A DNA stretch of 64,000 nt, taken from NCBI GenBank assembly GCA_964016885.1, contig OZ024754.1, positions 16,616,001 to 16,680,000 of the forward strand, read 5' to 3'. This DNA comes from Eledone cirrhosa. Taxonomy: Eukaryota. Below the pieces are notes generated by a model. The model saw only the letters and a list, made by a program, of their open reading frames with translations, was not told where the DNA came from and did no database searches. Positions 52,545 through 54,966 of the stretch are shown in pieces. Made by a program: the position numbers and the translations under genes. How positions within the stretch are numbered: the first letter of the stretch is position 1; each line of letters begins with the position of its first letter.

Positions 52545-52766
52545 AATTAAGTTAAAAATGTACATCTACATATGCATACTGAAATACTAGTGTGTATATG
52601 AATACACACACGTATACATATGTAGGTGTACCAAGTCTTTCACTGGTCGCTTTGCAGTGAGCGGCCAGCTATTCTGTATGTAAACACACAGACAAACCGG
52701 TTTTTAGAGTCATACTGGTTTTTCGGGGGAACACCTTCCCCCTATTCTCCAGAAAGCCAGACAAGG

Positions 52767-52811
52767 AATATTGAACTAGTTTCGTTGTTGTTACAACTCA
52801 TCAGCAATATT
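52767..52811 (-). ncRNA. type I hammerhead ribozyme, 467-bp unit 1
   Basis: AAUAUUG-CUGAUGA-GUUGU(AACA)ACAAC-GAA-ACUAGU-U-CAAUAUU. Helix I extends through UUCUCCAGAAAG/CUUUCUGGAGAA. Confidence 0.9.
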
Positions 52812-53233
52812 TACCTATCTACCGGCCTTTCTGGAGAATTGTAAAAGCACATATCGTTATATGCTTTTTCTATGAAAATTAGTAGTGGGCAGACTAATTT
52901 GCATAGAGTGTGAGTACGCACCGGTTCAGCGGAGACGATAAAAACAAATAACGAAACGAAATTAAATTTCGTTTCGTTTGTAACTCACTTTTGTATGACT
53001 GACGCTTAAACAATTAAGTTAAAAATGTACATCTACATATGCATACTGAAATACTAGTGTGTATATGAATACACACACGTATACATATGTAGGTGTACCA
53101 AGTCTTTCACTGGTCGCTTTGCAGTGAGCGGCCAGCTATTCTGTATGTAAACACACAGACAAACCGGTTTTTAGAGTCATACTGGTTTTTCGGGGGAACA
53201 CCTTCCCCCTATTCTCCAGAAAGCCAGACAAGG

Positions 53234-53278
53234 AATATTGAACTAGTTTCGTTGTTGTTACAACTCATCAGCAATATT
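53234..53278 (-). ncRNA. type I hammerhead ribozyme, 467-bp unit 2
   Basis: Same sequence as 52767-52811. Confidence 0.9.
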
Positions 53279-53858
53279 TACCTATCTACCGGCCTTTCTG
53301 GAGAATTGTAAAAGCACATATCGTTATATGCTTTTTCTATGAAAATTAGTAGTGGGCAGACTAATTTGCATAGAGTGTGAGTACGCACCGGTTCAGCGGA
53401 GACGATAAAAACAAATAACGAAACGAAATTAAATTTCGTTTCGTTTGTAACTCACTTTTGTATGACTGACGCTTAAACAATTAAGTTAAAAATGTACATC
53501 TACATATGCATACTGAAATACTAGTGTGTATATGAATACACACACGTATACATATGTAGGTGTACCAAGTCTTTCACTGGTCGCTTTGCAGTGAGCGGCC
53601 AGCTATTCTGTATGTAAACACACAGACAAACCGGTTTTTAGAGTCATACTGGTTTTTCGGGGGAACACCTTCCCCCTATTCTCCAGTTACAAACGAAACG
53701 AAATTTAATTTCGTTTCGTTATTTGTTTTTATCGTCTCCGCTGAACCGGTGCGTACTCACACTCTATGCAAATTAGTCTGCCCACTACTAATTTTCATAG
53801 AAAAAGCATATAACGATATGTGCTTTTACAATTCTCCAGAAAGGCCGGTAGATAGGTA

Positions 53859-53903
53859 AATATTGCTGATGAGGTGTAACAACAACGAAACTAGTTCAAT
53901 ATT
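53859..53903 (+). ncRNA. type I hammerhead ribozyme, inverted unit (T>G at 53874 in helix II)
   Basis: AATATTG CTGATGA GGTGTAACAACAAC GAAA CTAGTT CAATATT. Confidence 0.85.
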
Positions 53904-54966
53904 CCTTGTCTGGCTTTCTGGAGAATAGGGGGAAGGTGTTCCCCCGAAAAACCAGTATGACTCTAAAAACCGGTTTGTCTGTGTGTTTACATACAGAATA
54001 GCTGGCCGCTCACTGCAAAGCGACCAGTGAAAGACTTGGTACACCTACATATGTATACGTGTGTGTATTCATATACACACTAGTATTTCAGTATGCATAT
54101 GTAGATGTACATTTTTAACTTAATTGTTTAAGCGTCAGTCATACAAAAGTGAGTTACAAACGAAACGAAATTTAATTTCGTTTCGTTATTTGTTTTTATA
54201 TATATATATATATATATGTATATATATATATATGTATATATATATATATGTATATATATATATATATATATGTATATATATATATGTATATATATGTATA
54301 TATATATATATGTATATATATGTATATATATATATATGTATATATATGTATATATATATGTATATATATATATATATATATGTATATATATATATATATG
54401 TATATATATATATATGTATATATATATATATGTATATATATATATATGTATATATATATATATGTATATATATATATATGTATATATATATATGTATGTA
54501 TATATATATGTATATATATATATGTATGTATATATATATATGTATGTATATATATATGTATATATATATATGTATGTATATATATATATGTATGTATATA
54601 TGTATGTATATATGTATGTATATATGTATATATGTATGTATATATGTATGTATATATGTATGTATATATGTATATATGTATGTATATATGTATGTATATA
54701 TATATGTATGTATGTATATATATATATATATATATGTATGTATATATGTATATATGTATGTATATATGTATGTATATATATATGTATGTATGTATATATA
54801 TATGTATGTATGTATATATATATATATATATGTATGTATGTATATATATATATATATATATATGTATGTATATATATATATATATATATATATATGTATG
54901 TATATATATATATATATATATATATGTATGTATGTATATATATATATATATATATATATATACATT

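Follow-up and report, generated by a model that had tools for sequence, protein, structure and literature searches.

The 64,000-nucleotide stretch of Eledone cirrhosa DNA that we analysed (the window) contains 467-bp units, each complete unit with a type I hammerhead motif, arranged as two head-to-head arms with two fixed outer ends. We read this two-arm layout as the footprint of a Penelope-like element (PLE) insertion, and it is the most informative feature of the locus. The feature is real and its insertion footprint is unusually clear. At the level of sequence, the element shows every feature of animal non-LTR retrozymes, and it very probably represents a retrozyme mobilised by a PLE. With moderate confidence we favour a more specific reading, in which a PLE copied this non-LTR retrozyme by priming two cDNAs at two sites on one template, probably a monomer circle. 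The genomic product is observed directly: a long-ended arm joined to a short-ended arm, with variable inner ends and common variants. An inverted 5′-truncated arm, a tail at one end and a microsatellite target, the marks of mobilisation by a PLE, are all present.

The left arm (52545–53686, minus strand) comprises 2.44 identical tandem units; Tandem Repeats Finder reports a period of 467, 2.4 copies and 100% matches for it, and its copies 1 and 2 and partial copy 3 show zero differences. Its RNA 3′ end lies leftward and terminates at unit position 229 (the ‘short’ site), unit positions being numbered from the predicted hammerhead cut. The right arm (53685–54199, plus strand) holds 1.10 inverted units, terminates at unit position 303 (the ‘long’ site) and carries a single substitution, at 53874 within helix II. 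The two arms meet head to head with a 2-bp overlap. Between the two fixed end sites lie the 74 nt of unit positions 230–303 (54126–54199, plus strand), which form the tail; they hold a 14-bp palindromic hairpin and are terminal on one arm only. The element is flanked by (TA/TG)n target tracts at 51447–52544 (92 G, 0 C) and 54200–54962 (72 G, 0 C), whose equal strand polarity indicates that the insertion went into a pre-existing microsatellite; a target-site duplication would not be visible inside (TA)n, here or at the other mapped loci. The original prediction described the whole locus as tandem. Its unit, period and left arm stand, but the segment at 53685–54199 is an inverted arm, and a tandem-only architecture misses the head-to-head arrangement with its two fixed outer ends.

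The Rfam hammerhead search that had been proposed as a check matched model HH9 at three sites, all of which score lower than its gathering score of 52. Two lie in the left arm on the minus strand (52751–52822 and 53218–53289; each 38.6 bits, E 5.8e-7), with predicted cuts between 52774 and 52773 and between 53241 and 53240, respectively. The third (53848–53919, plus strand; 33.8 bits, E 2e-5) has a helix II mismatch at 53874 and a predicted cut between 53896 and 53897, a site that had been placed correctly and that belongs to the inverted right arm. The CUGAUGA and GAAA cores, 5-bp helix II, palindromic ACUAGU and GUU triplet claimed for the unit can all be read in the sequence, as can the hairpins and 14-bp palindrome that had been listed. 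Helix I, claimed at about 30 bp, is predicted to extend over about 26–28 bp with bulges (z −5.2). Helix III consists of one pair and a palindromic tetraloop, as in axolotl HHR_Amex1, and its duplex has a predicted energy of −7.2 kcal/mol.

A single complete cut-to-cut monomer, of a predicted 467 nt (52774–53240, minus strand), could be released from the locus. Folding this monomer as a circle, another of the proposed checks, gave −162 kcal/mol, compared with −96.8 ± 5.0 for 100 shuffles (z −13), and the hairpins show compensatory changes, consistent with the highly self-paired circle predicted for a retrozyme. The unit has a GC content of 37.9% and is non-coding, as had been stated: its longest stop-free frame is 72 amino acids, or 20 from a Met, and it lacks the reverse transcriptase (RT) and GIY-YIG ORF of an autonomous PLE. 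It also contains what we take to be an octamer-like motif. We discarded a reading of this motif as a promoter of the snRNA type, such as that of newt satellite 2 (PMC2220036), since its changes are matched by changes in its hairpin partner. Rfam microRNA matches in the window were rejected as (TA)n artefacts.

The element belongs to a large family. A DNA search of its own genome (3.0 Gb) returned 714 candidates, and the 40 that were scored are nearly all about 99% identical. A pattern for the hammerhead core matched the genome 9,453 times (control 0), a 26-mer of the window’s own subfamily has 159 exact matches, and arrays reach 30.6 units, bearing out the proposal of a dispersed, young, non-coding family of tandem type I hammerheads. 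A pattern that excludes this core gave 30,101 matches (control 2), and the 100 of them that were listed represent a sister family, B; a joint pattern for both families gave 40,273 (control 19). About 40,000 hammerheads in two related families make up a sizeable part of the genome. Families A (that of the window) and B are colinear homologues. The family B unit is about 420–540 bp and about three times more abundant than that of family A, and has a U–U at the base of helix II, as in HHR_Amex2. In family B (L110, L176–L205) one hairpin has become a (TA)n stem of variable size, which gives units of 424 to 538 bp. Related sequence also occurs in runs of two other organisms, mostly as pieces that are 90–99% alike.

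Covariation among genomic copies, the absence of which had been named as grounds for abandoning the ribozyme, is present in helices I and II. In an alignment of 17 hand-chosen hammerheads, 92.5% of 255 cells are paired and 6 of the 15 pairs show double changes; the covariation score was reached by none of 500 shuffles and the pair count by 58 of 500. Most of this covariation follows the split between families A and B and therefore reflects few independent events. The core nucleotides are invariant, and all 17 copies have a GUU, GUC or GUA cut triplet.

We mapped insertions in three samples: the 40 loci with the best scores, 24 stretches taken from the initial 31 Mb of contig C1, and another 29 loci belonging to the young subfamily. 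In the first sample 69 of 74 arms, and in the second 41 of 42, have their outer (RNA 3′) end at 229–234 or 303. Every head-to-head pair in which both outer ends are defined, 56 in all (28, 15 and 13 by sample), combines one long and one short end, and none of the head-to-head pairs mapped in the three samples is short–short. The one long–long adjacency involves the inner piece of a three-piece locus (L043), and a further six head-to-head pairs have one undefined end. The inner ends are scattered and mostly joined by a few bases of overlap or filler, and either arm may be the longer one. Family B likewise has two ends, at homologous positions about 57 nt apart. The strict pairing of a long with a short end suggests that the two DNA ends use different start sites, a point that bears on the PLE tail.

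Two of the mapped loci depart from the usual arrangement. At L051:3077-6730, two one-armed copies lie 3 kb apart with a common inner end and a private variant, and end at 303 and 234. At L150:7711-8273, the flanks are not (TA)n but inverted (GAT)n/(CAT)n tracts belonging to two repeats in opposed orientation, probably through rearrangement.

The family combines features of two known systems. As in non-LTR retrozymes, the unit is non-coding, low in GC, tandem and a few hundred bases long, with one type I hammerhead each (Cervera and de la Pena 2020, PMC7229834), thousands of copies and a strongly self-paired predicted circle; at 467 bp it slightly exceeds the 150–450 bp of the retrozymes in that study. 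The inverted and tailed structure of PLEs has been described previously (Craig et al. 2021, PMC8557442; PMC3846280), and the comparison literature further includes PMC4209133. Like EN+ PLEs, the family shows partial tandems, an inverted 5′-truncated copy, a one-end tail, (TA)n targeting and a hammerhead in the repeat. Unlike them, it has no ORF, the whole element is the repeat, and the tail is 69–74 nt compared with a reported 30–40 nt. In vitro, a PLE protein that is predicted to dimerise extends both strands, and its two RT start sites, with no difference seen between strands, delimit the tail (Frangieh et al. 2024, PMC11167929). Two coding PLEs of the present genome also lie head to head in (TA)n with short and long ends, with a one-sided tail of about 60 nt (L115) or about 40 nt (L102). 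In L1 twin priming, two target-primed cDNAs on one RNA are joined by microhomology into an inversion. On our reading, our loci resemble this in the two cDNAs on one RNA and the microhomology-joined inversion; they differ in having two fixed priming sites, in lacking a poly(A) tail and in that either arm, or both, may be longer than one unit.

These features suggest the following mechanism. The array would be transcribed, and adjacent hammerheads would pair through the palindromic ACUAGU and release 467-nt monomers, which, by analogy with other retrozymes, would be ligated into circles. As the insertion footprint suggests, a PLE protein with RT and GIY-YIG domains would then cleave a (TA)n tract on both strands, and synthesis would be primed at unit position 303 by one of the DNA ends and at 229–234 by the other. 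Each cDNA would extend round the template and across the cut site for a distance that varies, and short microhomology would join the 3′ ends of the pair.

Variants shared between units bear on the template. After removal of hotspot and end positions, the 40-locus set contains 14 variants that occur in every covering unit of a locus, compared with a permutation mean of 0.19 and a maximum of 3 in 1000 permutations; five more occur in some units of a locus and 130 in a single unit. Thirteen variants are found in both arms, at 10 of the 26 two-arm loci in this set. These locus-wide and both-arm variants indicate that, as a rule, the two arms go back to a single template or a single homogeneous source. 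Stops at the ribozyme cut are not enriched (7 of 153 arms have an inner end within 10 nt of it, with 6.6 expected), and 94 of 95 crossings of the cut junction show no alteration; together these observations argue against cut linear monomers or template jumping.

The youngest sub-lineage is marked by three A-to-G changes clustered in a 6-nt span of a hairpin stem, at unit positions 338–343, and its 23-nt variant motif has 69 matches at only seven loci. One array (6.85+12.94 units) shows no difference between units and another (17.56+8.03 units) a single 3-nt deletion; a third has 8.81 units, and a fourth, beside an N gap, at least 4.65+1.95. A fifth locus (L217:1265-6306) has a 10.77-unit arm whose 5′-most 1.2 units derive from another subfamily, which suggests a template switch or recombination, and the remaining two are short. 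No longer parent array is found among the 69 motif matches. Rolling-circle copying of a monomer circle is the simplest explanation for near-identical long arrays that lack a longer parent.

A different template would account for part of this evidence. The same two-site PLE insertion could have copied an uncut linear read-through transcript of the array, with long arrays made by later unequal crossing-over and any circle a by-product, a reading that we rate as rather unlikely. An uncut linear multimer would traverse the cut site just as cleanly, so that the intact junctions and the absence of stops at the cut are equally expected. The older arrays of 30.6 and 14.8 units, which have higher-order variant patterns, show that arrays also change once they are inserted, and identical units could multiply unnoticed or be made uniform by the assembly process. 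The main in vitro substrate of the anole PLE was uncleaved RNA (PMC11167929), and one of nine Xenopus retrozyme dimers cleaved in vitro (Li, Clavereau and Pollet 2026, 10.64898/2026.07.22.740005); both results weigh against a cut-circle template here. An uncut array, however, fits poorly with new variants fixed in all units of many young loci, with nearly invariant arms of at least eight units at four of the seven loci of the youngest sub-lineage, and with the lack of a longer parent for them in the assembly. We retain a monomer circle as the probable template.

The second arm could also be made without a second priming event, if a single RNA-primed cDNA folded back at a hairpin and copied itself. 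Such fold-back would account for variants common to both arms, and self-priming has been inferred for PLEs (PMC3846280). In 6 of 53 pairs, compared with 3.3 expected (p 0.11), no more than 12 nt separate the two inner ends, several of which lie at hairpins; containment of one arm in the other is slightly above chance, neither arm being contained in 10 of 53 pairs compared with 16 expected (p 0.02; three three-piece loci omitted, and some cases marginal because ends are BLAST estimates). Some second arms may therefore arise in this way. Those same 10 pairs, the finding that either arm can be the longer and the arms of L279, which abut without overlap (235-303 and 22-234), count against fold-back, and make it improbable as the explanation for the family.

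That the unit is simply the pLTR of a coding PLE, or a satellite, with the hammerhead an inactive relic, is very improbable: the sub-threshold Rfam scores, the single-pair helix III and the proposed derivation of retrozymes from pLTRs (10.64898/2026.07.22.740005) would suit it, but the core is invariant, the helices covary, the cut triplet is kept, the family is dispersed with fixed ends, and 6 of 73 family stretches contain a match to PLE protein, which lies next to an arm at L152 alone. The independence of the arrays from any coding PLE, on which the original prediction depended, holds across the sampled 73 family and 50 GIY-YIG stretches, the latter among 150 scored; none of the 50 has a pLTR homologous to the unit. 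Searches by GIY-YIG family, hammerhead spacer variant and profile did not find a partner PLE with homologous ends, and a search by RT family picked out no PLE.

Coding PLEs are nevertheless present, with 10,597 GIY-YIG candidates in the genome (150 scored) and both RT and GIY-YIG domains in seven of nine ORFs tested. The ORF of L100, 937 amino acids without a stop, is flanked by pLTRs and has a Cys linker like that described for Neptune. The pLTRs of the full-length L100 and L102 elements contain, by eye, hammerhead-like motifs with altered cores and a near-palindromic helix III. At L152:2248-3071, a retrozyme arm lies head to head with a 3′ fragment of an ORF related to that of L102. The fragment is broken and interrupted and has a stop codon; the locus is possibly a chimeric insertion, and a weak lead to the partner PLE. 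Unrelated hammerhead-like families occur near PLE fragments at L079, L092, L096, L102, L105, L106, L109, L112, L115 and L118.

The variant spectrum offers a lead on the RNA intermediate. Across 68 loci, A>G changes on the hammerhead strand outnumber T>C by 42 to 21, and by 33 to 16 (p 0.008) when two loci with arms of other subfamilies (L295 and L306) are dropped, L051 being excluded throughout. A>G changes are commoner among locus-wide variants (8 of 19) than among private ones (22 of 172), and the A>G sites across the mapped loci have no 5′-neighbour bias. The skew and the clustered triple change are compatible with A-to-I editing of an RNA intermediate, as a lead only; polymerase error or transcription-linked mutation could yield an equal skew. 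We tentatively extend our reading to a dimeric Penelope RT that would engage two fixed sites of one 467-nt circle for twin-primed rolling synthesis, with an ADAR-edited circle as founder of the young sub-lineage. If so, the genome would record twin-primed rolling-circle retrotransposition, and RNA editing as a source of heritable variation.

Sequencing runs also contain the unit. Comparison over an intron-containing stretch indicates that run X3 behaves as RNA and run X1 as DNA, and X3 includes a contig spliced across a GT..AG intron. Pieces in X3 cover most of the unit, as contigs that tell neither strand, ends, circularity nor level. Their summed depth on the unit, tens to about 200, is a poor measure; it lies far below the value for an unrelated short repeat of that run, and neither hints at abundant circles nor speaks against them.

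Non-LTR retrozymes of animals, one of them from a mollusc, have already been published, as has their connection with PLEs. Circles have been shown in coral, mussel and axolotl, with PLEs proposed as mobilisers (PMC7229834), and retrozymes have since been linked to pLTRs in a study that, in its available text, samples no mollusc (10.64898/2026.07.22.740005). Unlike the elements in the available text of those two papers, the present family shows head-to-head arms, two fixed ends and signs of one template for both arms. The literature searched, which covered few subscription papers, contains no description of an octopus or cephalopod hammerhead or retrozyme, or of inverted rolling-circle retrozyme insertions, and the available text of an octopus repeat annotation (PMC13282606) does not mention ribozymes. 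Movement of animal retrozymes has so far been a hypothesis only, in which circles are copied by a Penelope-like RT. The family provides evidence, from the genome and at population scale, of PLE machinery and of a single template for the two arms. It also gives two exact candidate sites of priming and a 467-nt substrate on which purified PLE protein can be tested.

The window contains other repeats. A decayed Penelope-like element (47380–50700, minus strand), possibly Hydra-like, a label that we infer, has a broken ORF (48873–50323), a weak RT match and a Cys-rich linker. It is framed by 425-bp inverted repeats of 85% identity that have a hammerhead-like core and no homology to the retrozyme. 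A 767-amino-acid stop-free frame at 40104–42407 (minus strand) matches RVT_1 and zf-RVT and is LINE-like, and a second RT-like frame occupies 45133–47094 (minus strand), its 3′ end recurring near 55311–55520. A satellite with a 40-bp period spans 108–16616, with about 419 copies and 94% matches.
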